Source: a bacterium
GTDB lineage: Bacteria > UBA10199 > 2-02-FULL-50-16 > JAJFLM01
Direction of reading: 5' to 3'
Assembly: GCA_965216315.1 (NCBI GenBank)
Contig: CBDCFN010000016.1
Span: 1,984,001 to 2,048,000, forward strand
Length of the DNA stretch: 64,000 nt
The translations under genes were made by a program, and so were the position numbers. The notes beneath the pieces were generated by a model that was not told the DNA's origin, did not search any database, and saw only the letters and a program-made list of their open reading frames with translations. This document shows, in pieces, positions 41,647-61,000 of the stretch (positions within the stretch are counted from its first letter, which is position 1; each line of letters starts with the position of its first letter).

Positions 41647-44600
41647 TTAGCCCGTCTGACTCTCGATAAACGCCTTCATCGCCACCCGTTTGATCGGGAT
41701 ATTGTGCTTTTGTAACTGCGTGTATAGATAGCGACGTGAAATCCCCAAGGCTTCAGCCGCGAGCTTCTTATTAAAACCGCTGTCCTGCAAGGCCTTTAAG
41801 ATAATGTTCTTCTCACTCAACTTCTTGCTCCCACTGTCGATGGCAGGAGCTGAACCTGCCATCGCCTGCGGCCGCCCTTCAAAAAGCGCCTTCTTAAAGT
41901 GGAAGGATTTAGGCAGGAGTTTCTTCTTGTGGTGAAAGAGACTCGCACTACGAACCGTGTTTTCCAATTCGCGCACATTCCCCGGCCAGGTATAAAGCGT
42001 CAATAGTTCAAGCGCTTCCGGTGTTATTTCGTAAGCGTCACGTTTTTCATTGCGACCCATTTTTTCAAGGAAATGTTTTACGAGGATGGGGATATCTTCA
42101 ATGCGCTCGCGCAACGGCGGCAAGGTAACCGTCATTCCATTGAGGCGATAAAAAAGATCTTCCCGAAACGATCCATCAACGATCAATTCATTCAGGTCTT
42201 TATTACTCGCTGACACCACCCGCACATCGACCGTGATAACTTGATTGGAACCCAAGGGACGAATCTCGCCTTCTTGCAAAAAGCGCAATAGTTTAGCCTG
42301 CATCGGCGGGCTCATATCCGCGATTTCATCGAGAAAAACCGTGCCCCCGTTCGCGTATTCAAGTAAGCCTTTTTTATCGCGGTCCGCATGGGTGAACGCC
42401 CCCTTCTTGTGCCCGAAGAGTTCCGACTCCAGCAATGTCTCCGGCAAGCTCGAACAGTTTTCACTGACAAAGGCTTTTTTGGCACGGGGCCCTTTATAAT
42501 GGAGGGCACTCGCAATCATTTCCTTACCTGTTCCGGATTCTCCAAAGATCCAGACCGGTATACTCGTATCGACCAGCCGATCGACGAGGGAGAGCACCTC
42601 CAACATCGCCGGTGATTGACCGACAATCTCGCCGTATTCATAAGTGAGTTTTTGACGCGTCTCCGCGATATCTTTCTTAAGAATTGTCAGCTCGCTGCTT
42701 TGACTATCGACGGTCTCCGCAAGCTGCTTGTTGTTCTGACGCAAGCCCTGAATCATTTGGGCTTTTTGGAGCGCCAAACCAGCATGATCTGCAAAAATTT
42801 GTAAGACCTCCGATTCCTGCCCATGAAAACGCTCGGTTTCATAACTATGATCCATATAGAGCACGCCAACGACCTCATCGGCCGTCGTCAGGGGAAGGAC
42901 GAGGATCGATTTGAGATCGAGCTCATGCACACTCTCAGCCGATTCAAAACGTTGATCAAGAATCGCGTTGTCGGTCACCAGCGGCTGACCATTCTTAACG
43001 ACTTCGCCGACGGCTGAAAGACTCACGCGAAAATCATCGCCTTCCAGTAAATCTTTTGAGATGTTGCGCGCAACCTTGACGGAGTAACCGGCGACAGGAG
43101 AGTCAGGGTCTTCCGCTTTAATCAGCAAAAATCCCCTCTCGGCTCCGGATAGCTGCATGGCTGCATCCATGATCTGTTGGAGCACTTCATCAACGTTATT
43201 AGAACCTAACAGGTCCTTGGTGATCCCATGTAATTTTTGCAGAATATCCATTGTTTTAATCTCCCCTAATTGTGTTTCTGTCTCGCCCGCTTGGGCTAAA
43301 CAATATTTTTGATAATCGGGTCGTTCCTCAAAACTCAATTTGAGTGGGTCTGAGAGCCGTTCGTAAAGTGTCGTTAGTATCGTAGGTAATTCAGCCTGCC
43401 GCGCTGGTTCCAAAGCAAGCATCAAACGCACCCAACGTCGTTCCAAATCCCACTCGACCGGGGCCGCTTCTTTCTGGAGATGACGCGGGATGGCTAAAGC
43501 ACCAGTGTGTTTACCGTGACGAAGCATGTCGATTTCGAAACGAACTTCCTGCTGACGGTCACGAATATTAGCCATACCACTCATCGTGTCGGCCTGAGTT
43601 GAAAAGGAATCCGCTTGATCAAAATGTCCCACGCTGGCCCACACGAGAGCCAACTGCAGCAAGTTCAGCCCTTGATCATAGGGACTGCCAAAAAAGAGAA
43701 AGAGTTCGCGTGCCTTTTCAAGCTCTTCCAAGGCGCGCAGGTAATCGCCACGCCGTGTCGCAAATACGCCTAGATTTTGATAGACACGGGCCAATAACGA
43801 TTCATCATGACTCTGGGCCGCAATCTCGAGGGCCTTATTGTAGGATGCTTCGACATCATCAGCCCGCCCCAGTTGAAGAGCTAAGTTACCTTTCTCAAGC
43901 TCACTGGAAAAAAGGCCATGAGTCGACGACAAGAGTTCATAGATGCCTTCCCCTAGCTGCAAATACAACAGGGCTTGATCCCAATCGCCCTGTTCCGCTG
44001 CCATCAAAGCCTGATGCTTGTAGATTTCGGCCTTCTGTTGCGTCTCTTCGGGCAAAAGTCCATGGGCCTCAATAAAATGTTTTTGTGCCGAATCAAATTT
44101 TTCTTCGTTAATGTCCAAAAGCCCCAACATCGAATGAGCACGCGCAAGGCGGGGCCGATGAGACTCTTTCGCCAAATCACCGGCCTTCAAACAAAATTCC
44201 AAACGTTGACGGGCTTTTGATAATTGTCCGAGATTTTTGTAGGCCACTCCCGTCGATAACCCATATTTAACCGGATTAAGACCTTCTTCATCCTGCGGGA
44301 ATTCCTGATGCCATTGCTCCGCAATGCGAATCGTCTCAACAAAATTTCCTTCTGATCCGTAGGCATTCGCTAACTGCCTCAACAACAACTCTCTGTCCGA
44401 CGGATCCAGATCATGCTGCAAACACTTGTTAAAAAGAGCCTCTGCCAACTCAGCTTCGTGGCGGGCAATATATATGGACCCTGCCTTCAAGACCCATTCA
44501 ATCTGCTTGGGATGCAAAGGCAAGTGAGCGGCATGATGAGCCATCGCTTTAATCAGGTCCGCTTCCAACTCTTCGTTCCCGGATTCAAATACCTCTCCCC

Positions 44601-46368
44601 AGTAATCCAACCAATGCTGGTGGATTTTATTTCGATCTCGTGCATCAAGTTTATTTAAGACAATATCAGCTAAACGAGGGTGGGCGAGCTGATAGGCACC
44701 CGTATCTTCGTTATGATTTTTTATCAGACCCTGATCAATGAGACCGTTCACAAGCCCACCTACTTCAGTGGGCTTTCCACTATAAAGCGCTCGCAAATGG
44801 TTGCGGCTGACAGGCAGCAAGGTCGTTGCAATCAAACGAATTATTTCCGTCTCCGCTGCGTTCAACTTCTCAACGCGTTGTTTCAATAAATCTTCGAAAT
44901 TCTCAGGAAGGCTGATTTGCTGAAATTCCTTAAGGCTCAAGTGTTTCTTCGCCGCCAAGCCACTGGATCTGATTTCCTTAACTGTTTGGGTCAGTAACTC
45001 CGGATTTCCCTGGGTCCGTTCATAAATGACATCAATAATTTCTGTCGGTAAAGACTGCTGCAATAAAGCACCGATAAACTGCTCGGCATCATCCCTAGCT
45101 AAAGGGTGGAGACCGATATCAAGTACTTGGGAGTCTTCCTTAAGGTTGGCAAAAAAATGAGCCAGCACGGCATCAAGGTGATCATCATTGTATTCAAGGA
45201 TGAGAACACCATCAGCTCGCTCATCACTCTTCAGAAAATGATAGAGATCCCTTAAATGGTCACGCCGGAGGTTTTCGGCGCCGCGCACCATCGTGACAAA
45301 TGTATCCTCAGAATATTGCAGGCGTCCAACGTCTTTAGCCTGCAACTGTGCAACTTTTATTCCCTCCAAAACGAGGTGAAAAAAAAGTTCCTGCGTAAAG
45401 CGATTTTTACCGGTACCGGTAAGTCCGTGAATTAGAATGACCCCGCGGCTCTTGTCTTCTCGTTGTTTTTGAATAAAGCGAAGCGCTTCGTCCCATTCAA
45501 ACTCGCGGCCGAACAGCAGAAAGGAATGCATCGTCTCACTGCTCACTTCTTTGGTTTCACCACTCTCAAGTGCTTCGAGAACATCGCTTACTGATTTGAA
45601 ACGGCGCAAGGCATCGGCCTCAATCATACGATCGATTACCTTGGCAACCCGCTTAGGAATCGAACTTGACCGATCCGCTAAGCGCTGAAATTCAGGCGAA
45701 AAGAGATCGCGGAGGTTACGTGCGTCACGCCGTGGGTGGTGACCCGCCAAGGCCTCATAAAAAACTGTGCCCAATGAAAAAATATCACTGCCGGTCCCCC
45801 GCTCTCCTTTTAAGAGCTCCGGAGCGAGATAAGGAATCGCACCCTTCAACTTGGTCATCTCGGCGCGCGTCGCCTTGGGTGCAAAGATCGCAAAACCAAA
45901 ATCGACCAAGCGCGCCTGTCCGTTCTTATCGACCATGATGTTGGCAGGCTTAATGTCACCATGGAGGATCCCTTGCCCGTGGAGATAATCAAGCGCCTGG
46001 AGGCTCTGCTGCAACCAGGCGAGTATTTGTTCCGGAGTCGCTCCCCGCACGGCATCCTGCAAAGACGCCCCGTCGACCAATTCCATCCAGAAACACGGGG
46101 CCGGATCGACGCCCTCGATCTCATCGCCTGATTTGGAAAAACCGTAGATGGGAACCAGCCCCGGGTGTTGGAGCTTGGAAAGAAAACGCGCCTCCCGCTC
46201 AAAATTAGCGAGTGCCACTTGGGACGTATCCTTTAAGACCTTGAGGGCCACCGGTGGTTGATCCGGCGCTTGGACATCGAGGGCCCGATAGACCGAGCCA
46301 CTGGCGCCGGCATCCAATAATTCCTCAGCCTTCAATTGTGCCACAGGTGTATTGTAAAGTGTGCACAA
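41647..46368 (-). CDS. Ser/Thr kinase - P-loop ATPase - TPR - GAF - sigma54 enhancer-binding protein (start possibly GTG 46344)
   Basis: VALK, HGDIKPAN, DFG, APE; GLTGTGKN and GNP; TPR helices; GAF; GESGTGKE, ESELFGHKKGAFTHA, FLDEI, FREDLFYRL, WPGNVRELEN; Fis-type HTH. Confidence 0.93.
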   Translation of the reverse strand: MCTLYNTPVAQLKAEELLDAGASGSVYRALDVQAPDQPPVALKVLKDTSQVALANFEREARFLSKLQHPGLVPIYGFSKSGDEIEGVDPAPCFWMELVDGASLQDAVRGATPEQILAWLQQSLQALDYLHGQGILHGDIKPANIMVDKNGQARLVDFGFAIFAPKATRAEMTKLKGAIPYLAPELLKGERGTGSDIFSLGTVFYEALAGHHPRRDARNLRDLFSPEFQRLADRSSSIPKRVAKVIDRMIEADALRRFKSVSDVLEALESGETKEVSSETMHSFLLFGREFEWDEALRFIQKQREDKSRGVILIHGLTGTGKNRFTQELFFHLVLEGIKVAQLQAKDVGRLQYSEDTFVTMVRGAENLRRDHLRDLYHFLKSDERADGVLILEYNDDHLDAVLAHFFANLKEDSQVLDIGLHPLARDDAEQFIGALLQQSLPTEIIDVIYERTQGNPELLTQTVKEIRSSGLAAKKHLSLKEFQQISLPENFEDLLKQRVEKLNAAETEIIRLIATTLLPVSRNHLRALYSGKPTEVGGLVNGLIDQGLIKNHNEDTGAYQLAHPRLADIVLNKLDARDRNKIHQHWLDYWGEVFESGNEELEADLIKAMAHHAAHLPLHPKQIEWVLKAGSIYIARHEAELAEALFNKCLQHDLDPSDRELLLRQLANAYGSEGNFVETIRIAEQWHQEFPQDEEGLNPVKYGLSTGVAYKNLGQLSKARQRLEFCLKAGDLAKESHRPRLARAHSMLGLLDINEEKFDSAQKHFIEAHGLLPEETQQKAEIYKHQALMAAEQGDWDQALLYLQLGEGIYELLSSTHGLFSSELEKGNLALQLGRADDVEASYNKALEIAAQSHDESLLARVYQNLGVFATRRGDYLRALEELEKARELFLFFGSPYDQGLNLLQLALVWASVGHFDQADSFSTQADTMSGMANIRDRQQEVRFEIDMLRHGKHTGALAIPRHLQKEAAPVEWDLERRWVRLMLALEPARQAELPTILTTLYERLSDPLKLSFEERPDYQKYCLAQAGETETQLGEIKTMDILQKLHGITKDLLGSNNVDEVLQQIMDAAMQLSGAERGFLLIKAEDPDSPVAGYSVKVARNISKDLLEGDDFRVSLSAVGEVVKNGQPLVTDNAILDQRFESAESVHELDLKSILVLPLTTADEVVGVLYMDHSYETERFHGQESEVLQIFADHAGLALQKAQMIQGLRQNNKQLAETVDSQSSELTILKKDIAETRQKLTYEYGEIVGQSPAMLEVLSLVDRLVDTSIPVWIFGESGTGKEMIASALHYKGPRAKKAFVSENCSSLPETLLESELFGHKKGAFTHADRDKKGLLEYANGGTVFLDEIADMSPPMQAKLLRFLQEGEIRPLGSNQVITVDVRVVSASNKDLNELIVDGSFREDLFYRLNGMTVTLPPLRERIEDIPILVKHFLEKMGRNEKRDAYEITPEALELLTLYTWPGNVRELENTVRSASLFHHKKKLLPKSFHFKKALFEGRPQAMAGSAPAIDSGSKKLSEKNIILKALQDSGFNKKLAAEALGISRRYLYTQLQKHNIPIKRVAMKAFIESQTG

Positions 46369-46437
46369 CGAAGGGTCAATAATTCACAATTGATGGAGGG
46401 ATTGACGCTGAAATCGCCGCTGCTCAGCGGCATTTTA

Positions 46438-46503
46438 TGTGAATAAAATGTGAATAAAGTGTGATATAAATGTGATGTAATAAGTGTGATATTTTTGTGA
46501 TAT
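46438..46503 (+). repeat. Helically phased TGTGA direct-repeat array
   Basis: TGTGA at 46438, 46449, 46460, 46471, 46485, 46496 (spacings 11, 11, 11, 14, 11). Confidence 0.85.
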
Positions 46504-46581
46504 CCGCAACTCCCCTAATCAAAATAAATTTTAGCACAATAATTTCAGTGAGTTATAAGCTAACTATTTCGGGGAAATAGT

Positions 46582-46597
46582 TGGCACACATATTGCT
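46582..46597 (+). promoter_or_regulatory. Sigma54 promoter
   Basis: TGGCAC-ACATA-TTGCT, 40 nt before ATG 46638. Confidence 0.85.
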
Positions 46598-46637
46598 ATA
46601 CACAATAAGTGTTTACATAATTTTTGGAGGTATAAAT

Positions 46638-46934
46638 ATGTCAGGCACACGTATCAGTCGTTACGACACGCATCCCCAGGGCGATACCGACCCGAACACA
46701 TCCCAGCGCGGTCCCGAGGCAGCGCGGGCTCACGATATCAGCCATACGGCTCGCGATCTCAACGAGGCGAGTTATCAAGCATCTCAACAATTGGATCGGG
46801 TCACGCAAACTCGCCCGAGGCGACAACGTCCGGCACGCATGACTCAACAGGAGATCATGGAAACTCAGCAGCGACGCAATAATGAGCTCGCCCGCATCAT
46901 CGAAGGAGCTTTACAGACGAGGACAAGACGATGA
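46638..46934 (+). CDS. Small Q/R-rich orphan protein (MSGTRISRY)
   Basis: RBS GGAGG; ATGA overlap with the next gene. Confidence 0.75.
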   Translation: MSGTRISRYDTHPQGDTDPNTSQRGPEAARAHDISHTARDLNEASYQASQQLDRVTQTRPRRQRPARMTQQEIMETQQRRNNELARIIEGALQTRTRR

Positions 46935-47239
46935 GAGCCGAGTTTATCGTTCAAATCGATCAAGGAACTCAAACCATTGGAACATCTTTCCGTCCCGACC
47001 GGAATGATCCCTCAAACTTTCGCGTCAGCCGGCGTGAATACGATGAGATGCTCGCGAATGCGCGGCTTCCCGCGAACGCGCGATTGATCGGTGTCCAAGT
47101 CGGGGATCATTTTTTTCCGGCCGGGACTTCGGATCAATTTTATCGATTGTTCCGGCGCGGTCCGCTTCGCCCCGCACTACGACGGCGCGGCCCTGCGTTT
47201 TGGCAATCATTACAAAGCTTTCTTAACCGTTTGATATGA
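46931..47239 (+). CDS. Small orphan protein (probable paralog of 37885..38250)
   Basis: RBS GAGGA; REYDEMLANARLPANARLIGVQVG. Confidence 0.72.
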   Translation: MRAEFIVQIDQGTQTIGTSFRPDRNDPSNFRVSRREYDEMLANARLPANARLIGVQVGDHFFPAGTSDQFYRLFRRGPLRPALRRRGPAFWQSLQSFLNRLI

Positions 47240-47276
47240 GGATTTAATTTTAAATTTCGTCCCCCATGACGACCTA

Positions 47277-47328
47277 GGTCCCGCGGCTTTCCACTGGTAG
47301 GAGCCGCGGGGCCCCTCCTCTCTTTTTT
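47277..47328 (+). terminator. Stem-loop with downstream T tract
   Basis: CCCGCGGCT (47280-47288) / AGCCGCGGG (47302-47310), then a pyrimidine/T run. Confidence 0.55.
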
Positions 47329-47343
47329 AAAAAGGAAATGACC

Positions 47344-47754
47344 ATGTCAGGCAAAGAAGTTTCACGATATACAAGGCCCCGACCCTTACCGAACTCGACT
47401 CAGCCCGCAACAGTCGCTCAACCTACAGGTCGGGCAACACCGGCCCGAACGACTCAATATATGGCTACTCCGACGGGACAGCAGGCCCTGCAAGCAATCG
47501 AACAACGACGACAAATACAAGCAACGACACGTTACGAACAAACTTTGCGCCACGCCCCCATGCGTCACGGGAATATTACCTTTCGTCCAGGCGATCGCGT
47601 CATTTCAGTCAGGGATCCAAATCACGTCGTCACGATCGACCACTTCGAAACCCGTAGAGGATACGGCTGGGCTATTTTCCGCAATGGCGGGGAATCTCCT
47701 ATCGAAGATATTCACCATTATCACACCCCGGCATCACCAACGCGATCAGAATGA
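47344..47754 (+). CDS. Small orphan protein (MSGKEVSRY) with SH3/KOW-like C-terminus
   Basis: RBS AAGGA; P/T/Q-rich N-terminus; FRPGDRVIS segment. Confidence 0.7.
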   Translation: MSGKEVSRYTRPRPLPNSTQPATVAQPTGRATPARTTQYMATPTGQQALQAIEQRRQIQATTRYEQTLRHAPMRHGNITFRPGDRVISVRDPNHVVTIDHFETRRGYGWAIFRNGGESPIEDIHHYHTPASPTRSE

Positions 47755-50271
47755 TTTATTGGGGCGCTCCCACTCCCGAATGCGGCTGAGCAATTGCCAG
47801 ATCCAGTGTCTTTGCCCTGGTTCCGCAGCGACTCCACGACGACGTCGCGGTGATTCGGACTCACGACGTAATGCGTCCTTTTTGGTATCTGCATGATGGT
47901 GTGAGGTTGTCTGTGAAATCGTCTTGAACTTCTGACTTTCCAAGATGCTCCGATAACGCATGACGGGTGGCAACCTTTTCTCCTGCAATTGTTTAGCCCT
48001 TTGAATCATCTCGAAGTCAGCCTCGTCGGGAACCGGAAAGGCGATCCCGTTCGCATAGGTTGGCGAATGGCGAAAGTTATAAACGAGATGGTGCCAGTCC
48101 TCAAATCCCCGGAGTGGCTGGGGCTGGCGACGTCCCGCGCCCTTTAATTGCACGTCGGCGGCGGGAAAAGTCGTATTGGCCCACGTATCACAGGTCAGAT
48201 TACCGCCGTCTCTGATTTCATTGCCGACAATCACATCATCTCCGACGGGCACCGTATCCAAGACGCCATTGGCGCCCGGCCCGATGCAGAAATCATCCCC
48301 GTTGATATCAACCTGGACGTTGTTGGTATTCGGTGCCGGACAACTCGACCCTTCCAAAATCCCGTCACCGTCCCAGTCCATCGGCCCCAAAGCTAGTAGA
48401 GTGCCACCTATGCCGGCACACTCATCGAGCCCGAGCGGGAGCGTCTCACGCAAATCCGGCAGGTCATGCCGAGAAAAATCACAATTGCCGGGAACACCTG
48501 CCGCTGGCGTCGAAGGAACTGAACAGTCTTGAAAACGGTAATTCATGACACTGAGATAATTGGGCTTGTTGTGAATTCCATCATCGCCGCCATGTGCCAG
48601 ATTCAAAGTATGTCCCAACTCGTGCATAAAGGTCCCGGCCTGTTGGTTTTGACTGCCTACAGAAAACCCATTAGCGTCAATAGCCCAACAGGGGTTGCCA
48701 AGCTGATTCAGTCCCCCGAGCGAAACAAAGAAATCATTGGCGGTAAAATTTTCGGCCCATCCGCTTGTGCAATCATTCGTTTGGCGCCTTGAATTTGTCT
48801 GATGCACGAACAAGGCATAACGAAAGGCCGGCGCGCGCTCCTCGTTAAAGTTGGCCGCCTTCAAGGTGTAAAAACTCGTTCCCGGTCGTCCGGCCGCGCC
48901 ATCCCAGTCGACGACTTGATTCCCCGCCTCGGCAATATGATCGCCCCCCTCGCCGTAATCACCGAAGGTCCCGATCACGAAATTACCAGCCGCATTCGCC
49001 GTCCCGTTGACCGGTATCACGCCGGCCCCGTACAGTGTGCCCGTATCGACGTGCAATTGAATCCCCGTTGTGCCGTCAAGATTAACCACCGGGGCATTCG
49101 CAAAGGCCTGCACGACATCCTGCATCGCTGCTTGTAGCGGGCAGTGACTGTGATCGACCGGATCCGTCAACACACCGTTGCCATTGGCATCGTCAACAAG
49201 ACAGTCGACCTCAACAAAGAGATCCTTGCGCAATGGATCGGCCCCCATCGCCGGAAGATCGACATCAATCGTCCCATCCGCATCGACATCGATGCCGAAC
49301 CGTTCGGCTCGATCGTACAGTCCATCTCCGTCGCGGTCGATCCTGGAACCGACAGCAACAGACAAATTAAGATTGGCCGCAGGAACATTCCAACTATCGA
49401 CGAGCTCGCCGTCAGCCTTGTACACCTTGATTGCACCCGTCATGCCATCCGACCTGATGATTTCATCAGCTCCGTCCGCATCGAAATCGCCGACGGCGAC
49501 GTCGAGATTGAGATTCGCCGCCGGACCACTAAAACTCTCAAGAATACTCCCATCAAGACGATAGATTTTAACCTGGCCCGTCCAGCCATCTGCAATCACT
49601 ATGTCATCCGTTCCATCCGCGTCGACATCCCCCGAGGCCATACTGAGATTTTGGTTGGCTGCGGAACCGCCGAACCCTCCCAGCACATTCCCATCGATGT
49701 CATAGATTCTGATCGAACCCGTCATTCCGTCCGCCGTCATGATTTCATCAACACCGTCACCATTGACATCTCCGACCGCAACATCAAGGTTTTGGTTGGC
49801 TGCGAGACCGTCGAATCCTCCCAGCACATTCCCATCGATGTCATAGATTCTGATCGAACCCGTCATTCCGTCAGCGATTATAACCTCCTCAACATGATCG
49901 GTATTGACGTCTCCGACCGCGATGGTAAGATTTTGATTGGCCACCGGAACCTGAAAACTGCTCAGCAACTCTCCCTCGTCGGTATAGACGCGAACAATTC
50001 CCGTCATGCCATCTACAGTAACAATCTCGTCGTTAAAATGATCTCCATTGATATCGCCAGCCGCAATACTCAAATTTAAATTAGCGGCAGGAACAGAAAA
50101 ATGGTGAGCGGAGGTTTCGAGCGGATCATAAATTCGAATGAGACCGGTCCAACCGTCGGCAGTAAACAATGAAGCACCGATGGGTTCGTCTGCAAATGTT
50201 GAGGTATGAAATAAAAGCAAAGAGAAAAAGATTGAGAGGATGGTTACGAATTGAAATTTTATTTTTGTCAT
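47746..50271 (-). CDS. Secreted FG-GAP beta-propeller + zinc metallopeptidase (metzincin-like)
   Basis: RBS AGGAG before MTKIK; signal peptide; 47-aa repeats with GD(V/I/F)NGDGxDEI; HELGHTLNLAH and downstream SVMNY Met-turn. Confidence 0.85.
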   Translation of the reverse strand: MTKIKFQFVTILSIFFSLLLFHTSTFADEPIGASLFTADGWTGLIRIYDPLETSAHHFSVPAANLNLSIAAGDINGDHFNDEIVTVDGMTGIVRVYTDEGELLSSFQVPVANQNLTIAVGDVNTDHVEEVIIADGMTGSIRIYDIDGNVLGGFDGLAANQNLDVAVGDVNGDGVDEIMTADGMTGSIRIYDIDGNVLGGFGGSAANQNLSMASGDVDADGTDDIVIADGWTGQVKIYRLDGSILESFSGPAANLNLDVAVGDFDADGADEIIRSDGMTGAIKVYKADGELVDSWNVPAANLNLSVAVGSRIDRDGDGLYDRAERFGIDVDADGTIDVDLPAMGADPLRKDLFVEVDCLVDDANGNGVLTDPVDHSHCPLQAAMQDVVQAFANAPVVNLDGTTGIQLHVDTGTLYGAGVIPVNGTANAAGNFVIGTFGDYGEGGDHIAEAGNQVVDWDGAAGRPGTSFYTLKAANFNEERAPAFRYALFVHQTNSRRQTNDCTSGWAENFTANDFFVSLGGLNQLGNPCWAIDANGFSVGSQNQQAGTFMHELGHTLNLAHGGDDGIHNKPNYLSVMNYRFQDCSVPSTPAAGVPGNCDFSRHDLPDLRETLPLGLDECAGIGGTLLALGPMDWDGDGILEGSSCPAPNTNNVQVDINGDDFCIGPGANGVLDTVPVGDDVIVGNEIRDGGNLTCDTWANTTFPAADVQLKGAGRRQPQPLRGFEDWHHLVYNFRHSPTYANGIAFPVPDEADFEMIQRAKQLQEKRLPPVMRYRSILESQKFKTISQTTSHHHADTKKDALRRESESPRRRRGVAAEPGQRHWIWQLLSRIREWERPNKSF

Positions 50272-50300
50272 AGCACTCCTTTTGGCGAAGTGCTGCACAA

Positions 50301-50316
50301 AGCAAGACCTGTGCCA
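50301..50316 (-). promoter_or_regulatory. Sigma54 promoter
   Basis: Minus strand TGGCAC-AGGTC-TTGCT, 29 nt before ATG 50271. Confidence 0.85.
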
Positions 50317-50451
50317 GAAATATTTTTTATTGCTAAAAACCATTTCAACTCGCTAATTCAAAAAAATATTTTTTCGAATTCTTGCGAAGTCCACACGGTC
50401 GTTCAAAAGCTATTTCCAGGGTGCCTCGTCCCCATTCTGAGATTTGAAATC

Positions 50452-50558
50452 CCCAGGCAACTCGTAGCCCTTTTGCTGCCGATAAGGTATATTGGGAGAA
50501 GGCCGAGCTGAATTTACATCTTCAGAAAACTCAATCCGGCCCCTTTTGGGAGTCGCGT
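50452..50558 (+). repeat. 107-bp direct repeat copy 1 (sigma28-like promoter + leader)
   Basis: Identical to 51743-51849; contains CAAC-N16-GCCGATAA (50458-50485). Confidence 0.92.
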
Positions 50559-50561
50559 CCA

Positions 50562-51742: not shown

Positions 51743-51849
51743 CCCAGGCAACTCGTAGCCCTTTTGCTGCCGATAAGGTATATTGGGAGAAGGCCGAGCT
51801 GAATTTACATCTTCAGAAAACTCAATCCGGCCCCTTTTGGGAGTCGCGT
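51743..51849 (+). repeat. 107-bp direct repeat copy 2
   Basis: Identical to 50452-50558. Confidence 0.92.
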
Positions 51850-51852
51850 TCT

Positions 51853-53076
51853 ATGTCGCTAATATTTAAGGGCTTTTTGGCCCTATCTTTGGTTCTCAGT
51901 CTGTGGTCCTGCCAGGGCATGACCTCCGGACTGACCACTGGTCTCAACGCCGATTCCAGCGATCCCGACTCCGATGACACAATTTTAGCCGATTCAGGCA
52001 CTTCCGGCGGCTCAACCGGCTCGGAAGGTTATGGACTCTCCGACAGCGCGATGGATCCCGCCAGCGATCCACTCATGGACGCGCCGGATCCGGAATATCG
52101 GACTATCAGCGGCAGCCCGAGCGGAGAGCTCGACGCAGGCAGCATCACTCCGCTGGAACCGGATGGATCGGCGATTGAACGCAGCGATACCTCCATGGAC
52201 GCCGTTCCGACACCCATCGATACCGAGCCGAGACCGGTCGTCGCGGCTGAAGGCGGCACCGTCGGAGCGCCGCATGATTACGAGGCCGTCAATCCGGAGA
52301 ACATCGCCGTCCTCTTCTGGCCCGAAGCAACGACCGTCCCCTGGACGACCCCCCGAGAATTTATAAATAAAATTCGCCGAGCGCCTGCCGGCGATGCAAC
52401 CATGAATGCGATCGCGCAACAAGCGCAAACCATACACTTTTTTGCCTGGTTTCCCGAAAACGTTGCCCGCAACCGTACCGCCGAGCGTCGCTTGGCCGCC
52501 GAAGGCAAAGGCTATGTATACCTCGATCAAAATGTGTCGGATATCATTAAAGAGGAAAGCCTGCTCAGTGAGAGGCTGCGCACGCGCGAACCCCTGGTGG
52601 CTCAATTAGGATCCGACGGCGCCGCGCCAGCCGGAACTACAGAAACGGCACCAACGGCTGAAGAGAGCGCTCCGCCTGAACCGGAACATTGTTCTTATTT
52701 TGACCGTTCAGCTCCGGAATTCCGTGAATGGACTTTATGCACGACCCGCGAGCAGTTGACGGATCGACTGCAGCAACATGTTAGCAAGCCGTTATTCCAA
52801 ACCGACGGCACCTTCGGCCCCGGTTACTACCTCGTGTTCGCAATCAAAGCGTCGGAGCGTGATGCGCGCAGTTGGCCAACGTTGTTCGCCAATTTTCAGG
52901 CATTAAAAGACGCCGTCCACCGTCATGTTATAGATCCGAACGGACATTATGAACTCAATGGAGATTTTCAAGTCAGTACTCCTGATCAGAACATGCGGAC
53001 ACGCCTGTTGCTGGAACTGTACAAAAACAAACCCCAAGATAGCCCGAATCAACCGATATACATTTTCAGAGACTAG
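51853..53076 (+). CDS. Orphan lipoprotein, GxYLV family member 3 (tandem paralog of 50562)
   Basis: Near-identical first ~70 aa; EPEHCSY; GPGYYLVFA. Confidence 0.82.
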   Translation: MSLIFKGFLALSLVLSLWSCQGMTSGLTTGLNADSSDPDSDDTILADSGTSGGSTGSEGYGLSDSAMDPASDPLMDAPDPEYRTISGSPSGELDAGSITPLEPDGSAIERSDTSMDAVPTPIDTEPRPVVAAEGGTVGAPHDYEAVNPENIAVLFWPEATTVPWTTPREFINKIRRAPAGDATMNAIAQQAQTIHFFAWFPENVARNRTAERRLAAEGKGYVYLDQNVSDIIKEESLLSERLRTREPLVAQLGSDGAAPAGTTETAPTAEESAPPEPEHCSYFDRSAPEFREWTLCTTREQLTDRLQQHVSKPLFQTDGTFGPGYYLVFAIKASERDARSWPTLFANFQALKDAVHRHVIDPNGHYELNGDFQVSTPDQNMRTRLLLELYKNKPQDSPNQPIYIFRD

Positions 53077-53085
53077 GATAAGCAC

Positions 53086-53781
53086 ATGAGAATCGCTTTA
53101 TTTCTCATCTTCACACTCTGCCTCGCCGCCTGTCAGCCGGGCGGACCCCTTTCAGCCATCTCTGATATCGATGCACCGACTGAAACCGCCATGGATGAAG
53201 GCACCGTCGCTTCATCCTCCGCGCACGAAGAACTGGAGAGCGACACCGAACTCTCGGAAGAAGCTGAAGAGGCCATGGAAGAGAGTCGTCGCGAACAAAT
53301 GGCCCGCGTCCGCGGCTATGAGGATCTGCAAGAGGATGCACGCCGGGAACGACACAGCGGCCCGATTAATGAGGTGGATACCGGACGTCCATCAACAGAG
53401 GAATTTAAGTCTATCCTCTCTCAAGTGGATCAACGCACGATGATCATTATTGGCTGGGACAAAGAAGCCCAAACTTACATCAACTTTGACACTGAAGAGG
53501 AGTTTCAAGAAACGCTGCTGACGGGAGACATTGACCCGACTTGCATTAAAATGGCCAAGGTTAGGCGGCACCGTTCCAAATCAACGAGCAGTGCCGGGCT
53601 CCTTAAGGAGCTCGCATTAGAACAACCGGGTACCTATCTCGTTTTTCAAGAACAAGGCTGGCTCCAACAAGGGATACCGGAAAGATTTGTCAATATAGAC
53701 GAACTCAAAAACTTTGTAACGGATCCTAACTTAACCTTTGTTCAATTCATTCATTATCCGGCATTCGCCGTCATCCGTTAA
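53086..53781 (+). CDS. Orphan lipoprotein, GxYLV family member 4
   Basis: Lipobox LAAC; IIIGW; PGTYLVFQ. Confidence 0.78.
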   Translation: MRIALFLIFTLCLAACQPGGPLSAISDIDAPTETAMDEGTVASSSAHEELESDTELSEEAEEAMEESRREQMARVRGYEDLQEDARRERHSGPINEVDTGRPSTEEFKSILSQVDQRTMIIIGWDKEAQTYINFDTEEEFQETLLTGDIDPTCIKMAKVRRHRSKSTSSAGLLKELALEQPGTYLVFQEQGWLQQGIPERFVNIDELKNFVTDPNLTFVQFIHYPAFAVIR

Positions 53782-53784
53782 ACT

Positions 53785-54117
53785 TCATCTCGCACATTTG
53801 ACACAACAAGAACTCTCAGGAACATGCATAAGTCGCGCGATCGGAATCGGTTCCTCACACACCGCACACAAGCCAAAATCTTCCGAATCGATTTTACTCA
53901 AGGCCCTTTCCAGCTTTGATAACTTGGCCTTGGCGGCACGCAGGGCAGCCGCATTAATCTGTTGATTATTAATTGCCTCCATACGGGTCAGGCGACCGAT
54001 GGCTTCATCTGGAGCCACCGGCTTGGCCGATTCTTCAAGAGCGGGAATACTTTCTTTAACGGCGACTATTTCAGCCGTTATCGCCTTCTTGAGATTCTGC
54101 TTTTCTTCTTCTGTCAT
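53785..54117 (-). CDS. TraR/DksA family C4 zinc-finger protein
   Basis: AIGRLTRMEAI coiled coil; FGLCAVCEEPIPIARL...CCVKCA. Confidence 0.9.
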   Translation of the reverse strand: MTEEEKQNLKKAITAEIVAVKESIPALEESAKPVAPDEAIGRLTRMEAINNQQINAAALRAAKAKLSKLERALSKIDSEDFGLCAVCEEPIPIARLMHVPESSCCVKCAR

Positions 54118-54170
54118 CTATATTAGGTCCTTCGCACCACACCATAACACATTTTAGAGGGGATGCTTTT

Positions 54171-54797
54171 ATGAAAATATGGAGCGACAGTTTTGGGCAC
54201 AATCAAGTCATTCCTAGTGAATTTGCATTTGGTAAACATCACCCAGACTCACACGTCGAACTCTCCGAGAACAAGAACCCGCACATCGCTTGGAGCGACC
54301 TTCCCGAGGGAACGCAGTCACTGGTTCTCATCTGCCACGACCCCGATGTCCCGAGCCGCGGCGATGATGTCAATCAGGAAGGCAAGACCGTCCCCGCAGA
54401 TCTTCCCCGCGTTGATTTTTTTCACTGGATCCTCGTCGACATCCCGACCGATGTCGACCACATTCCGGCCGGGGAACACAGCAGCGGCATTACAGCGCGC
54501 GGTAAAACGGGCCCCGAAGCGCCCGGTGGCATGCGACATGGCCTCAGTAACTATACGGACTGGTTTGCCGGTGACGCCGATATGGCCGGCAACTATTTTG
54601 GCTATGATGGCCCCTGCCCTCCATGGAATGACGCCATCATCCACCATTATAACTTTACGCTCTATGCCTTGGATGCCCCTACTTGTCCGGTAACGGAACA
54701 TTTTACTGGCCCCGAGGTTCTCAAGGCCATCGAAGGTCATATCCTCGATAGTGCTACTTTGATTGGGACTTATGCGATTAATCCGGAGGCGGCTTGA
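54171..54797 (+). CDS. YbhB/YbcL family (PEBP / Raf kinase inhibitor-like) protein
   Basis: HDPDVP, FFHW, YDGPCPPWND, HHY motifs. Confidence 0.93.
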   Translation: MKIWSDSFGHNQVIPSEFAFGKHHPDSHVELSENKNPHIAWSDLPEGTQSLVLICHDPDVPSRGDDVNQEGKTVPADLPRVDFFHWILVDIPTDVDHIPAGEHSSGITARGKTGPEAPGGMRHGLSNYTDWFAGDADMAGNYFGYDGPCPPWNDAIIHHYNFTLYALDAPTCPVTEHFTGPEVLKAIEGHILDSATLIGTYAINPEAA

Positions 54798-54885
54798 GGA
54801 AATGCCTAGCCAGTCTGAACTTCATTTGCTATAGAAGGCCGCTCATTCAATCAGTCATTGCGACATACCTAAGAGGGGAATTATC

Positions 54886-55209
54886 ATGAAAAAATCAGCA
54901 CTCACACTGATGGCAATCTTGTCATTGTCCGTAGGCATCGCTGCCTGCAGCAGCTCGATGCCGATCGAAAAGTATATTGATGTCATGGCGGACCTGGGAT
55001 GCCAGGGAGTGACCGAGCTTGATACGAAGGCAAAGGATATCTTTGCGAAACACGGTGTCACGCAAAAGGACGTCGATTCATTTCGTCGCAATCTGAAGCG
55101 CGATCAAATTAAAGATATGGCCGATAAGATTGTCGCCAAAGTCGCCGCCTGTCACGGCGTGGACTTGAAGAGCTTAGGGGCGAAGGCACATCAAAAGGAA
55201 GCTTCCTAA
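54886..55209 (+). CDS. Small hypothetical lipoprotein
   Basis: RBS GAGGGG; lipobox IAAC. Confidence 0.75.
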   Translation: MKKSALTLMAILSLSVGIAACSSSMPIEKYIDVMADLGCQGVTELDTKAKDIFAKHGVTQKDVDSFRRNLKRDQIKDMADKIVAKVAACHGVDLKSLGAKAHQKEAS

Positions 55210-56303
55210 GCCGGAGCCGCTATTTCCGTTTCGACGGCAAAATGGTCGGACGAGTCGTGTCCGGTGCGAGGATCTCTAAATTCTTCGCGCCGCACACGAC
55301 TTTTTTTCGCCTGCAGTACACCATCCGTATAGATATAATCGATGCGTCGCTTTCCTTCATTGGGAGCCCCTTTCACCCCAAACTTAACAGCAAACCGATT
55401 GTTATGATCATAGGTATAACCAGGTCTTGCCTGCTCATCAGGATGGAGCAAACGAAAACTATCGACGAGCCCTAATTTGCGGGCCATCCAGCGATAGCGC
55501 ACATCATTGAGGTCACCCATCACCACGGCCGGATAAATCGCTTCTTCAACGAGGGCTCGAATTTGTTCTAGTTGTTTCTTGCGCGCCGTTATGGCCTGGA
55601 GGGATTCTCCTTGCTGGGCATGCGTGACATACACCGTATAGCTCTTTTGTCCGGGCGGATTAACATCGGCTTTGAGCGTTCCCTTCCGTGCAAAGCGCTC
55701 GGCATCGGCCCGTGCCTGATACGGATAAAAAATGGCATCGGACAGAGGATAACGACTCAGTATCAGTAAGCCGGATCCCCATACATCCGGCAGGCGAAAG
55801 GCTTCCTTTAGACCCCAGTGCATCCAATCTTCTTTAATAAAATACTTGAAAGCGCTGCGCAGCAGCCCACGGTCGACGTTGTAATTCGTCTGTGCAAAAA
55901 ATTCGACAATGTCTTCGACATTATCTAAGAGCAATTGAGTGGCTCGCGGCCAACGAGAATGAAGACTCTCAATGATATCCGGTATGCCCCCGGCATTAGG
56001 AGATCTCACCTGGTAAGGATAGATATCTTGAAGATTTTCTTGGAGAGCACCGCGCAGTTCATCATCCCACATCTCCGTGAGGCCGACGACATCCGGCCGC
56101 AGCTGACGCAGCTGCATTGCAATTTGTTCGGTACGTAAATCGTCATCCAAGACAAGACCGGTCTCAACACCGTTGATACTCCCGGTCCGACCGAAGATAT
56201 GCGTGTTGTACGTCAACAAGCGTGATGACGTCACCACGTGACTTGCTGATTGAACGCCCGCCGCTGAACTCAGCGATATAGGCATGGCAATACCAAGCGC
56301 CAT
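55206..56303 (-). CDS. Endonuclease/exonuclease/phosphatase (sphingomyelinase-like) family protein
   Basis: LLTYN, DVVGLTE, SGLLILSRYP, VMGDLN, RIDYI, SDHFAV; RBS AAGGAGG before MALG. Confidence 0.88.
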   Translation of the reverse strand: MALGIAMPISLSSAAGVQSASHVVTSSRLLTYNTHIFGRTGSINGVETGLVLDDDLRTEQIAMQLRQLRPDVVGLTEMWDDELRGALQENLQDIYPYQVRSPNAGGIPDIIESLHSRWPRATQLLLDNVEDIVEFFAQTNYNVDRGLLRSAFKYFIKEDWMHWGLKEAFRLPDVWGSGLLILSRYPLSDAIFYPYQARADAERFARKGTLKADVNPPGQKSYTVYVTHAQQGESLQAITARKKQLEQIRALVEEAIYPAVVMGDLNDVRYRWMARKLGLVDSFRLLHPDEQARPGYTYDHNNRFAVKFGVKGAPNEGKRRIDYIYTDGVLQAKKSRVRREEFRDPRTGHDSSDHFAVETEIAAPA

Positions 56304-56382
56304 AAACACCTCCTTGCCCTGAGCGAATCTGATCACGCCAGATTAGCCGAAGGGGTATCGCCCGCTAACCCGCTTGGACACT

Positions 56383-56408
56383 GTATCGGCGGGAGATCGC
56401 GTAAGTTG
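56383..56408 (-). promoter_or_regulatory. Sigma28-like promoter
   Basis: Minus strand CAAC-N14-GCCGATAC upstream of the EEP gene. Confidence 0.45.
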
Positions 56409-56456
56409 TTCTGCAAAGCGTCAGGAAATGATGCGTTGTGTCGTTGCCGCTAAGTT

Positions 56457-57836
56457 TTAAGGAAGGTTTCCGAACACGATGGCCGTCTGTTCCCCATTAT
56501 GAATGAGACCTAGCTGATCATTTGTAAAATCATAATCAATCGAGGTCGGACCTACTCCGGCATCCAGAGTCGTGATGACCGTTTCAGAACCCGGCGTCAG
56601 GCCGAGTACGGAAATTGTGTTATCTCCATTATTGGTGACAAAAGCTCGGCTATTGTTATCAATCGTCACGCTATCGGGACTCGTCCCGACGTCGACGGTA
56701 TTCGTAATCGTTACGGCGCCGGTCAACACGTCGATATCCAGAATGTGAGCGACCCCCGAGTCATCGACCAAGACTGCGCTGCGATTATTAAAAATCGCTA
56801 GATCACTCGCGCCATTGATGCCAAGTAAACTACCGGTTCCGATCGGAAAGGCAAAATTAACATCAATGACAAACCCATAGAATTCACCGTTTGCATATTC
56901 AATCACAACCACGGCATAGTCATTGCCCGCGTCACTCCCTGTGGCAACAACAGGCGTGCTCACTTGGTTGGGATTCGACCCGATCGGATTCGCTATCGGC
57001 GCCGGTGCGAACGCTGGAATAGTCAGATCTAAAATCGATATTTCGACATTCGCTGCCGCCGTATTATTCGTAATGACCGCCTTAGCTGCAGCCGCGTGAA
57101 TGGCTATGTTAACGGGATTTACCGTTAAAGGACCTAACGACGCACCCGTGGAACCGTCTAATGGTTGTGAACACACATCGCCGGTGTTTGACACGACTAT
57201 TGCGCGCGCATTGGCGCTGTCGATCGCTAGCGCGTTCGGATCATTACATTCAACCGGCAGACTGATTCCCGCCCCGGTCGAGGGCGGGTTGCCGAAGATA
57301 ATCGGATTGATTATTCCATTCCCCAAGAACTGACCCGTCATCCAGGTCTGAGAGGTCGTCGCATCGAGCGCCATCGCCACGGGAGCAAAGTTAAGTGGCA
57401 TCGGAACAAACGGCACCGTCAATACGATCGGCGTACCGTTCACTCCGTTTTCAATCTGAAAAAGCTGGATTTGATCGCCAATCGCCGCTTCGATGTCTAA
57501 GGTAAACGACCCGTCCGCGTTGGAGGTCGTTTCATTGGTTGTCTGGGCATAGGCCGTCCCCCAGAACAAGGGCTCCCACCAGTAGGCAAGCCCTTCCTGC
57601 GTGAGATTCACCGCGCGCACGATATTGCCGCCCGTTACGGCACCGGCCTCACCCGTGATCGTCGAAATCCCGTTGTCCGGAGTATCGATGCGAATCTTCG
57701 TGACGACAGGGGCCGGAATAGAAACGGGGGGTGCTGACGAGGCCGCACCGCCACAGTCCACAAGACAAAGCGCGAGGCCCATCAGGGCCACAGCCCTCAA
57801 GCCGCGCTTTAAAAATCTTTTCTTTACCGTAAACAT
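56457..57836 (-). CDS. Lipoprotein with Ig-like domain and YncE/YVTN-like beta-propeller
   Basis: RBS GGAGGA; lipobox LVDC; ADGSF; VGTSP...AFVTNNGDNTISV repeats. Confidence 0.8.
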   Translation of the reverse strand: MFTVKKRFLKRGLRAVALMGLALCLVDCGGAASSAPPVSIPAPVVTKIRIDTPDNGISTITGEAGAVTGGNIVRAVNLTQEGLAYWWEPLFWGTAYAQTTNETTSNADGSFTLDIEAAIGDQIQLFQIENGVNGTPIVLTVPFVPMPLNFAPVAMALDATTSQTWMTGQFLGNGIINPIIFGNPPSTGAGISLPVECNDPNALAIDSANARAIVVSNTGDVCSQPLDGSTGASLGPLTVNPVNIAIHAAAAKAVITNNTAAANVEISILDLTIPAFAPAPIANPIGSNPNQVSTPVVATGSDAGNDYAVVVIEYANGEFYGFVIDVNFAFPIGTGSLLGINGASDLAIFNNRSAVLVDDSGVAHILDIDVLTGAVTITNTVDVGTSPDSVTIDNNSRAFVTNNGDNTISVLGLTPGSETVITTLDAGVGPTSIDYDFTNDQLGLIHNGEQTAIVFGNLP

Positions 57837-57860
57837 CTGCAGTCCTCCAACCCCTATTTG

Positions 57861-57876
57861 TGCAATAGATATGCCA
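57861..57876 (-). promoter_or_regulatory. Sigma54 promoter
   Basis: Minus strand TGGCAT-ATCTA-TTGCA, 24 nt before ATG 57836. Confidence 0.8.
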
Positions 57877-57907
57877 CAAGAAAGCGGTCACGTCGAGATT
57901 TAATCAA

Positions 57908-57990
57908 TTCCCCTCTCCTCGGCAAGAGAAGGGCCAGGGAGGGGTCTTTATCGACCTCCCCTGAATCCCCTCCTTAGCAAGGAGGGGAGA
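57908..57990. repeat. Pair of REP-like palindromic elements
   Basis: CCCCTCTCCTCGGCAAGAGAAGGG and CCCCTCCTTAGCAAGGAGGGG units in inverted arrangement. Confidence 0.6.
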
Positions 57991-58022
57991 ACACAATTTA
58001 TATTTTCTAAAATATATATAAG

Positions 58023-61000
58023 TTGTATATTTTTGAGATGATCATCGACCAACGCTATCGGGTCATCGGGGAGCTGGGGCAAGGGGTCAGCGGCAGCGTT
58101 CATCTCGTCGAAGACATGGAAGAACACTGCGAGTTGGCCCTCAAGTTTCTGCGGATTGATTCCGTCATGCTCACCCCCGAGCAATTACTCGATCGTTTCA
58201 AACAAGAATTTCGCATCCTCAAAGAATTGCAACACCCGCACATCGCGCGCATCGGCGACTTCGGCTATGACAAAGATTCGAAACAGCATTATTTTACGGA
58301 AGAACACGTACAGGGCGCCCCCATTACCGAGGCCGTTCAAGACGCTTCACTGGACGAAATCGAAGCGCTCATCGTTCAATGCTTGCGCGCGCTTGAATTT
58401 CTTCATGCCCGTCAGATCTATCATTATGACCTCAAACCGGCCAATTTATTTGTCACCCACAATAAACAAATCAAACTTATCGATTTCGGACTCGCCAACC
58501 TGCCGGGACGATCCATTTCAGGAACGCCGACCTATATGGCGCCGGAAATTTGTCTTCAACAACCGCGTGACGGCCGTGTCGACCTTTATGCCCTCGGCGT
58601 CATTTGGTATCAGTCACTCAGCGGCGGCAATCCTTTTAAAGATAAAAGCGTTAAGCTAACCATGGAACGACAAGTTCATTTCAAGGCGCCCCCGATTTCA
58701 ACGCAGCGATCGGATCTCCCTGAGTATCTCGATGATGTTATCGGCCGCTTGCTCGCCAAAAACCCCGATCACCGTTATGGACGTGCCGCGCAGGTTATTC
58801 GTGATCTGAATTGGTTAGGCGACAAGAATTATCCGATTGAGACTAAAGCCACCAGCGCCGGCTACCTACCCGAAGTCGGGCACCTCGTCGGCCGTGATGA
58901 AGAATGGGCCCGCATTCAACAGACCATCGATCAAGCCTCTGTGGAAGCAAGTCCTTCCCCCCCTATTATTCTGGTCGTCGGCGATACGGGATTAGGCAAA
59001 ACGCGAATATGCGAAGAAGCCCGTTATTACGCCCAACTCGATACACATGCACTGGAAATACGGGACTTCGATCATGTCCTCACGGCTGCGGGGATTGGTG
59101 AGCTTCGTTCTCAGGTCATCCAACGGACTTGGTCCGATGGCTCCCTGCTCATCGGGCTCTACCCGCAAGATGCTGATACGATTGCCGCATGGCTGCCTAA
59201 AGAACAGGTTCAAATTGTTCAGCTAAAACCATTCAACCAAGCACAAGTGAGGGAATACCTTCATCATGTCACCGGCATGACCGAAATCCCCAACAAGTTG
59301 TGTGAGGCCCTGACGACTCGGACGGAGGGCAATCCACGACTCTTACGAGAACTGTTGGTCGCATGTTTCAGTCAAAGTAAATTCAGTGACGCCTTCGGCC
59401 GGTGGACGCCAGGTGCCTTTGCTGATTTACAGCAAGAATCGGAACAACTGCCACTACCGTCGGCATTGGAACAATGGTTTACCGCGCGTAGTAAATCCTT
59501 GCCCCAAGAAACACTTCATGCCTTATCCGTATTATCAATCTGCCAGCACCCTGTTTCACTGTATGGGCTGGAAACAATTGTGGGTCCCATCATTAAATGG
59601 GGGCCGGAACTTATCAAAACAAGTTGGGTCAGTCGAAAAAATGATGGTTTTACCCTCCAAAACCCTTCTGTCCGTGAATGGTCACTCCAACAGCTTTCAC
59701 GCTGTGATCGAACCGGATGGCATGACAAGATTGTAAAAGCCGCGTCGGCATTTCCTGATGAAGATATGGATTACCATCGGTCCTATGGGCATGATCCCAA
59801 GCAAATTATTGCTTCCGCTGAACGCTATACGGAAAAATTAGTCCAGCAAGAATCATGGGAGTCTGCTGTCAATGTCCTCGATTGGGTGTGGGCGTCACTT
59901 CCTAATAGTAAAGCTAAAACAACCCTTGGCATTAGTCGGATTGATGCACTCATTGAATTGGCACGTGATGACGAAGTCAGTGCCGCCATCAAGGAAATTC
60001 AAGCCAGTATCAACGAGTTGCCGGATACCGCGCAAGTGACATGCCAGCAGTTACTCGACGATACCGTCATTGAATGGTTGTTGCGCCAACATAAATACGA
60101 GGACGCTCACCAGCGCATTGATGCGGCCTTAAACAACGAGCATTTGAGACCCCCCGCTCAGTTAATCCGCCTCAAAAATTATCTCGGCAGAATTGCCTTG
60201 GAGCAAGGAGATACGAAGTCCGCCCATGAACTCTTGCACAGCACCTGGCAGGAAGCATCCAAGTTGGATAAATCAGTCCGCTATCCCACCGCCAATAACG
60301 ATCTCGGTCTCGTCTTGCTCGCCCAAGGTCAATTCGACGCGGCGGCGTCTCATTTCGGCGAAGAGCTCAAGGCCATTCGCCATTGGCATGATCCTTTTCT
60401 TGAGGCCCGTTGCCGCTACAACCTTGCCGAAGCGCACCGCGGCCTCGGCGACACTAATAAAGCAAATAATGAACTGCAACTGGCTTATGAACTAGCTCAG
60501 CCCGTGGGTCGACACGAATTGACCCTGCGTATTCTCAATGCCATGGGCAACCTGGCGAATGAATCGGCACAAACCCAAGCAGCCATCGATTATTATGAGC
60601 GTGGTCTTCGCCTGGCGCAACGACTTGGAGATCGCAGCAGTTGCGCCGCACTTGCCACCAACCTTGGCATTTTATTCCACAACACACATGAAAATGATGA
60701 TGCGCTCAGTTATCTCACCCATGCCGAACATCTTTTGAGCGACATCGAACGAACACCCAGTGAATCGAGTTGTTTGGCGCGCTGTCTGCTCGAACGCGCC
60801 TTAGTAGAGCGCGATAACGATCATATAGAAAGCGCGGAAATATATCTGACTGAAGCCCACAAAATCGCCGCCGAAGAAGGCGGTGAATCTTTATTGCCTT
60901 TTATTGAAGAGGCGCAGGAGGAAATCAAAATGCCCCCAATGACATCTCCCGATTCCACGCAACCGCAGCAGGCCGGGACTCAGGCCTGGCAGGATCTGCT

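Follow-up and report, generated by a model that had tools for sequence, protein, structure and literature searches.

The window analysed here, a stretch of 64,000 nucleotides (nt) from contig CBDCFN010000016.1 of assembly GCA_965216315.1, carries two giant genes, gene 1 and gene 2, that join a kinase-bearing N-terminal half to a sigma-54 activator half, and in each of them an in-frame ATG preceded by a Shine–Dalgarno (SD) sequence lies in the linker between the halves. Both open reading frames (ORFs) are stop-free throughout on translation and share one Pfam layout: Pkinase, AAA_16 (a STAND-type NTPase), TPR, GAF, and Sigma54_activat with its lid. The Sigma54_activat profile (PF00158) is covered in full in both (4.6e-69 in gene 1, 1.7e-67 in gene 2). 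HTH_8 was detected in gene 1 (1.1e-08); gene 2 gave no HTH_8 match at E <= 0.01, its C terminus nevertheless aligning with the helix-turn-helix (HTH) of the paralogues. The two genes align as distant paralogues, with identities of 34% in the GAF-AAA+ part and 26% in the kinase-STAND part. The host genome (2.96 Mb in 16 contigs, 98% complete) carries nine giants of this type and one pair in which the halves are split into two genes, and it has rpoN (Sigma54_DBD, 9.2e-62, at G000:C16:834420-834899). The nearest named relatives are metagenome-assembled genomes (MAGs) labelled Deltaproteobacteria bacterium, UBA10199-1 or STL-UBA1, and remoter homologues were found in Myxococcota and Planctomycetota. 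The features of the two genes are listed below, with positions in the protein counted from N, an Asn conserved in the first GAF helix (position 8 of the hidden Markov model from alignment A1), and with SD strength given as the duplex free energy (dG) defined in the next paragraph.

41647..46368, minus strand: gene 1 long ORF, 1573 amino acids (aa) from the first TTG (ORF list, translation, Pfam)
43261..43266, minus strand: gene 1 internal SD GGGGAG, spacer 9 nt, duplex dG −8.1 kcal/mol
43249..43251, minus strand: gene 1 in-frame ATG, Met1040, at N-10 relative to the GAF Asn
41647..43251, minus strand: predicted short isoform of gene 1 (GAF, AAA+, HTH), 534 aa, proposed from comparison
58023..62777, plus strand: gene 2 long ORF, 1584 aa from the first TTG (ORF list, translation, Pfam)
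60916..60921, plus strand: gene 2 internal SD AGGAGG, spacer 8 nt, duplex dG −10.3 kcal/mol
60930..60932, plus strand: gene 2 in-frame ATG, Met970, at N-26 relative to the GAF Asn
60930..62777, plus strand: predicted short isoform of gene 2, 615 aa

At the junction the minus strand of gene 1 reads ...attaGGGGAGattaaaacaATGgat, and the plus strand of gene 2 reads gcgcAGGAGGaaatcaaaATG. A first-pass annotation, made from the letters of the window, had claimed an SD and in-frame ATG exactly at the TPR/GAF junction of both genes. Both sites are present just as it described them, and both Mets do lie in the common linker before GAF, the Pfam GAF start following 17 (gene 1) and 33 (gene 2) residues later; the two Mets occupy different columns of the alignment (N-10 versus N-26). 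In gene 2 a second Met, without an SD (dG −3.8), follows Met970 by 3 codons. We scored SD strength as the duplex dG of positions −20 to −4 against the 3′ tail of the host 16S rRNA, which is canonical (...GGATCACCTCCTTTCT, ending CCTCCTTT). On this scale, 2.0% of 12439 in-frame internal ATGs in host ORFs of at least 200 aa reach a dG of −8 or below and 0.5% reach −10 or below; among 1873 first ATGs of host ORFs the shares are 17% and 7.6%, and because of these the organism can be said to use SD sites. Around the gene 1 ATG, a 60-nt window has a GC content of 0.33 and a minimum free energy of −2.1, which fall in the lowest 0.5% and 0.3% of the gene's 1554 windows. In an AlphaFold model of gene 1 residues 850-1379 (mean predicted local distance difference test score 74.5), the sole low-confidence stretch between the helical repeats and GAF is residues 1028-1035, just before Met1040. 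A consensus scan, the one kind of promoter search made, found no sigma-70-like promoter in the 600 nt surrounding either internal site, and no Rfam family was found in the window at gathering scores. We additionally considered a GC hairpin in gene 2 at 60865..60886 on the plus strand (CGCCGCC-GAAGAA-GGCGGTG, then a T-rich run), which is terminator-like and lies 45 nt before the ATG, and set it aside as probably due to chance: it is not kept in the two gene-2 orthologues that were folded.

The same annotation had held that the annotated 5′ starts lack comparably strong SDs, and this is borne out. The best start candidate 5′ of the kinase G-loop scores −6.0 in gene 1, where it is a TTG right at the G-loop, and +0.1 in gene 2, whose likely 5′ start is the ATG at 58038 (MIIDQRYRV...). 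None of the host genome's nine giants has a start candidate upstream of the kinase domain that reaches a dG of −8, and among the 29 giants whose 5′ end is complete the strongest candidate has a median dG of −3.2, with three of the 29 reaching −8. In the 7 genes of the gene-1 clade (defined below) with complete 5′ ends, the internal SD is stronger than every 5′ candidate. As a separate observation on these leaders, an anti-SD-like string, CCCCTCCTTAG, occurs roughly 40-50 nt upstream of two giants, gene 2 (window ~57967..57987, plus strand) and L002 (G000:C16:1237422); upstream of gene 2 it pairs with AAGGAGGGG in a perfect 9-bp hairpin, and this hairpin might be the neighbouring gene's terminator or a leader structure.

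We examined the junction in 72 homologues, free of duplicates, from 41 genomes in the class of the host; 64 of the homologues are fused and 8 short. Every in-frame ATG with a dG of −8 or below was binned by its distance from N, with no chosen window. The 25 codons before N hold 19 such ATGs in the 64 fused homologues, or 11.9 per 1000 codons, and the bins more than 75 codons before or more than 25 codons after N hold 0 to 1.9 per 1000. Three bins adjoining the peak are also elevated (5.0, 2.5, and 3.75 per 1000 codons) because of two further groups of sites, described below, one at an LPEE-x-K-M motif of a sister clade and one, accidental, at N+21. A strong SD and ATG is present within the 15-codon window N-22..N-8 in 18 of the 64 fused homologues compared to 40 of 5402 control windows from the same ORFs, a window that was picked after inspection of the data, whereas the positional scan is free of such a choice; in both comparisons the homologues are kin, so that nominal p-values are overstated. 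On a quick IQ-TREE maximum likelihood tree of the GAF-AAA+ part (71 rows, with Shimodaira–Hasegawa-like approximate likelihood ratio test (SH-aLRT) support), the junction pattern recurs in several well-supported clades.

The two further groups of sites are observations in their own right. At N+21 in L001, L010, L032, and L045, the conserved GAF residues L-M-E/D-A-A-M yield ATGGAGG-type SD-like strings before the second Met, with a dG of −9.3 to −9.8. In the sister clade (L040, L048, L050, L051, L053-L058), the coding sequence of a conserved LPEE-x-K-M-DFE places CCGGAGGAA 5-6 nt ahead of an in-frame ATG that lies 34-61 codons before N and has a dG of −8.7 to −10.3. Nine of the ten loci show a local GC trough there (0.40-0.52 versus 0.57-0.68 for the ORF) and weak RNA structure, and the synonymous p value is 0.15-0.30. 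This site could be another internal start, farther upstream than the junction, or else a by-product of the conserved Pro-Glu-Glu.

In the clade that contains gene 1 (SH-aLRT 99), all 16 fused members carry a start and SD at the junction (15 ATG, 1 GTG; dG −5.8 to −12.5); the 5 genomes that contribute them belong to 3 families, with several paralogous sublineages per genome. When named MAGs were added (a scan of genome contigs with the gene-1 protein gave no loci, and one with alignment A3 gave 80), there were 29 distinct junction sequences, of which 28 have a dG of −5.8 or below and 22 a dG of −8 or below, with one weak site (−3.5); one further locus is cut by a contig end. The clade alignment runs from the motif LPPxLQVSFxERxDY through a linker, variable in length, unrelated in sequence and bearing the Met, to the GAF helix, and the residues that precede the Met are unconserved (KEE, KES, KET, EGG, GGK, KGK, GE, EEE, VEN, and others). 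Aligned on the ATG instead, the same sequences are 90-100% purine at −12..−8 versus 31-72% at −36..−17. We found that the mean dG, −7.6, was stronger than the −5.0 expected when the seven codons upstream of the Met were resampled synonymously (n = 33, Wilcoxon p 2e-7), the spacers between SD and ATG in this set being 3-10 nt. The RNA fold of positions −30 to +30 was likewise weak, at −8.9 kcal/mol for junction starts versus −14.9 at 1087 other internal ATGs. In 26 of 28 loci the junction start folds more weakly than the mean of its own locus, and the linkers of homologues without the Met show no trough in GC or structure (fold −15.8). In both fold comparisons the feature itself determines the classes, which also cluster on the phylogeny.

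For gene 2 there is less to compare. It sits on a long branch of the tree; 93 genomes of the class were searched and yielded 3 orthologues besides gene 2 itself, and metagenome scans with its protein or with alignment A4 found no more. The orthologue in G014 (another family, 49-53% identity) has a Met in the same column (EEAQEEIKM / TDAQREVDM), with CGGGAGG 6 nt upstream of it and a dG of −11.0. Those in G015 and G084, which belong to one genus, have Gly-Gly at that position, so the site is kept in two of three genera. The support for an internal start in gene 2 is real but thinner than that for gene 1.

The short homologues indicate what such a start may have been. Of the 8, we left out L034 owing to undetermined residues, and in the other 7 the short GAF-activator gene directly follows a 910-997-aa kinase-STAND-TPR ORF on the same strand and in a different frame. 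These short genes begin at N-10 to N-19 with an SD of dG −5.8 to −12.0. Two of the pairs overlap by ATGA (L043 and L069), with the SD inside the end of the upstream gene; two others overlap by 11 and 23 nt, and the remaining three are separated by gaps of 1, 11, and 136 nt. One split pair lies in the host genome itself (C15:12786-17400), and that of L043 is nested within the gene-1 clade. Because the split genes start at the junction, a protein beginning there is viable and the junction is a natural point of fusion or fission. A change of frame by one base would turn a split pair into a fused gene or the reverse.

We consider it likely that the junction site is a retained internal start that is still in use, yielding a short GAF-AAA+-HTH isoform beside the long form. 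The internal SD and ATG would then probably be the start of an activator gene that was formerly, or is elsewhere, separate, and that was kept after fusion. Continued use is the most likely case because all fused members of the gene-1 clade, which is old, have the site intact, at the correct spacing and free of structure, while the linker around it has changed. A giant gene would on this account be a fusion of a first unit (Ser/Thr kinase-STAND NTPase-TPR) with a second (a GAF-sigma-54 AAA+-HTH enhancer-binding protein), the two units forming, in some relatives, a translationally coupled pair of genes. The second unit's ribosome-binding site and ATG would have been kept in frame within an unstructured, AT-richer linker, and ribosomes would load internally on the full-length mRNA to make a free activator of 534 or 615 aa beside the form of about 1570 aa. 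The short form is probably made in excess of the long one, because the 5′ starts have a weak SD or none and the internal SDs are strong. Enhancer-binding proteins act as AAA+ hexamers (PMC2941729). Mixed hexamers of long and short subunits are to be expected here because both forms share the ring-forming AAA+ domain, and a few long subunits could bring in the sensing input of kinase, STAND, and TPR. What can be read directly in the genomes is the features of the sequence, how far they are conserved, and how split and fused genes relate; we infer initiation at the internal ATG, the ratio of the forms, and their co-assembly. A bolder extension, possible but in our judgment doubtful, is that of a one-gene "sensor plus amplifier" for sigma-54 control, in which a weak 5′ start makes a few long sensor subunits and a strong internal start many short ones, one sensing subunit gates a whole ring in the mixed hexamers, the lineage toggles between fused dual-start and split ATGA-coupled forms by single-base frame changes, and the nine fused genes and the split pair of the host genome serve as tunable modules.

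These results also bear on the interpretation offered by the first-pass annotation, which had proposed a long sensor isoform and a short activator isoform at each locus, with gene-fusion relics or chance mimicry by Glu/Gly codons as alternatives, and had named conservation of the SD and Met, with synonymous-site bias, as the way to check it. Conservation is complete among the 16 fused members of the gene-1 clade and partial for gene 2, and the synonymous bias is present in that clade. Comparison across homologues thus favours a used internal start over chance, and to that extent the proposal of two isoforms gains ground. The fusion alternative also holds in part, in that all 7 split pairs break exactly at the junction, and it merges with the reading of a start still in use. 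Chance mimicry is disfavoured by the excess within the N-22..N-8 window and by the positional peak.

Several observations weigh against a start that is still used, beyond the choice of window, the kinship of the homologues, and the construction of the fold classes given above. No ATG is present in N-26..N-8 in 29 of the 64 fused homologues, and on the tree 28 of the 63 fused homologues placed there have the junction class "none"; the sister clade lacks a junction ATG in 13 of 14 members, and no strong junction ATG was found among the Myxococcota homologues inspected. With so many fused homologues lacking it, the feature must be dispensable for protein function. A search for sequencing runs that hold this DNA listed 4 holders from one study, none of them RNA. 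The synonymous test is weak for single loci (p <= 0.05 in 3 of 33), and much of the SD strength stems from the choice of Lys, Glu, and Gly residues, which could in part reflect linker composition. The sites at N+21 indicate that an SD and ATG can arise accidentally, from protein constraint alone. For gene 2, the orthologues are few and those of one genus lack the Met, and the RNA structure at the site, at the 13.5th percentile within the gene, is moderately unstructured.

Part of this evidence would suit a silent relic, in which the SD and ATG are the unused leftover start of a former two-gene operon and the full-length protein alone matters. The split pairs break at the same point with ATGA or short overlaps, that of L043 is nested in the gene-1 clade, the Met has been lost in many fused homologues, and Gly has taken its place in gene-2 orthologues of one genus. 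We nevertheless regard a relic as unlikely. The fused state is found in 16 members from 3 families, whose terminal branches amount to 0.08-0.28 changes per column in conserved domains, and all 16 keep the start, a spaced SD, and low RNA structure even as the residues and length of the linker have diverged. The SD moreover exceeds the synonymous expectation, and unselected intragenic SDs are rare, at 2-4% of internal ATGs.

We think it quite improbable that constraint on the protein or on elongation accounts for the site, with the Met capping the first GAF helix and the purines reflecting a flexible Lys/Glu/Gly linker or an SD-like folding pause. The Met at N-10 does precede a conserved helix (M-D/E/Q-I-L-x-x-L), the amino acids alone do predict SD-prone codons (an expected dG of −5.0 versus a median of −2.5 at other ATGs), and the residues at N+21 do generate SD-like sites. 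However, the Met drifts from N-10 to N-21 (N-26 in gene 2) with the SD always 3-10 nt upstream; the SD is placed to serve the ATG, since of 25 other codons in a linker no more than 2 typically score equally; linkers without the Met lack the trough in GC or structure; and stand-alone genes use the same Met as their actual start. Pure chance, whereby Glu and Gly codons imitate an SD beside an ordinary Met, draws on the roughly 2% of host internal ATGs that reach a dG of −8, for with many Mets in a 1570-codon gene one strong match somewhere is not rare. That two paralogues and dozens of homologues have their matches in one and the same short linker, with 18 of 64 versus 40 of 5402 and a sharp positional peak, makes this explanation scarcely credible.

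Internal in-frame starts that free a working C-terminal module are already known for a handful of bacterial proteins. In Escherichia coli, an internal start at a domain boundary of arcB, which produces ArcB-C, was demonstrated by Ribo-RET and western blot, with start and SD conserved in 26 species (Meydan et al. 2019, bioRxiv 10.1101/520783). The likeness is that a signalling protein of several domains has, where two domains meet, an in-frame start preceded by an SD-like sequence, by which a C-terminal module is freed. ArcB-C is a small phosphotransfer domain from a membrane histidine kinase and was shown experimentally, whereas here a complete activator of 534-615 aa is predicted to come from a soluble Ser/Thr-kinase/STAND/TPR giant. 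ClpB is made as long and short isoforms through an internal start, the short form lacking an N-terminal domain; the accepted model is one of mixed hexamers. As with ClpB, the giants are predicted to give a ring-forming AAA+ ATPase in two lengths from one gene; unlike ClpB, a disaggregase whose short form omits about 150 aa, they would omit about 1000 aa of sensor domains. The clpB gene is named among proteoform genes in a review (PMC13515050). Two-polypeptide phage endolysins are described as giving a full-length and a C-terminal product by an in-frame internal start, some of them having to multimerise with a stoichiometry of 1:5 (PMC9430671). The shared trait is one gene with a full-length and a C-terminal product, in the endolysins with the short form in excess; these are phage lysis enzymes and not regulators, and the module common to the two products is a cell-wall-binding domain.

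Translationally coupled two-gene operons with an ATGA start/stop overlap are a known arrangement. The split homologues L043 and L069 match it exactly; in genes 1 and 2, unlike such operons, the frames are joined and there is no upstream stop, so that initiation would take place on mRNA under elongating ribosomes. In NorR, an enhancer-binding protein, the GAF domain controls the AAA+ domain (PMC2941729), and the predicted short isoform shares the GAF-AAA+-HTH layout of such GAF-domain enhancer-binding proteins. Our literature searches turned up no internal start described for a sigma-54 activator, and the word "enhancer" is absent from the 2026 review of N-terminal proteoforms (PMC13515050). 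What appears to be new here is such a start, as predicted, in sigma-54 activators of UBA10199-type MAGs, members of an uncultured phylum. If the short form is made, annotations of giant one-component regulators miss half of the story, and the ring could combine two kinds of subunit in a ratio governed by a pair of ribosome-binding sites. Split and fused relatives together offer a clean natural series in which to study how the downstream gene's start can survive a fusion instead of being erased; a start so kept makes the fusion reversible, and both architectures can coexist.

Three further observations concern the giants as a group. The canonical sigma-54 contact loop motif is GAFTGA, and gene 2 has it; in gene 1 the loop (residues ~1314-1319, ~42030..42047 on the minus strand) reads GAFTHA, as it does in 12 of the other 14 gene-1-clade sequences in alignment A2, the remaining 2 having GSFTHA. 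In the paralogue L007 (G000:C16:721600-725388) the AAA+ domain is decayed: in alignment A1 it lacks the GAFTGA region and some of the Walker region, and the match contains one reported in-frame TGA, so that L007 is probably a pseudo-activator or a broken gene. Finally, the giant regulator type, for which the gene-1 query found nothing in family f3 (0 of 6), is strongly amplified in some families of the class, and the genomes G027, G010, and G020, of 2.8-3.4 Mb, each have 15-26 junction-query matches, many of them in open frames of 1500-1700 aa.

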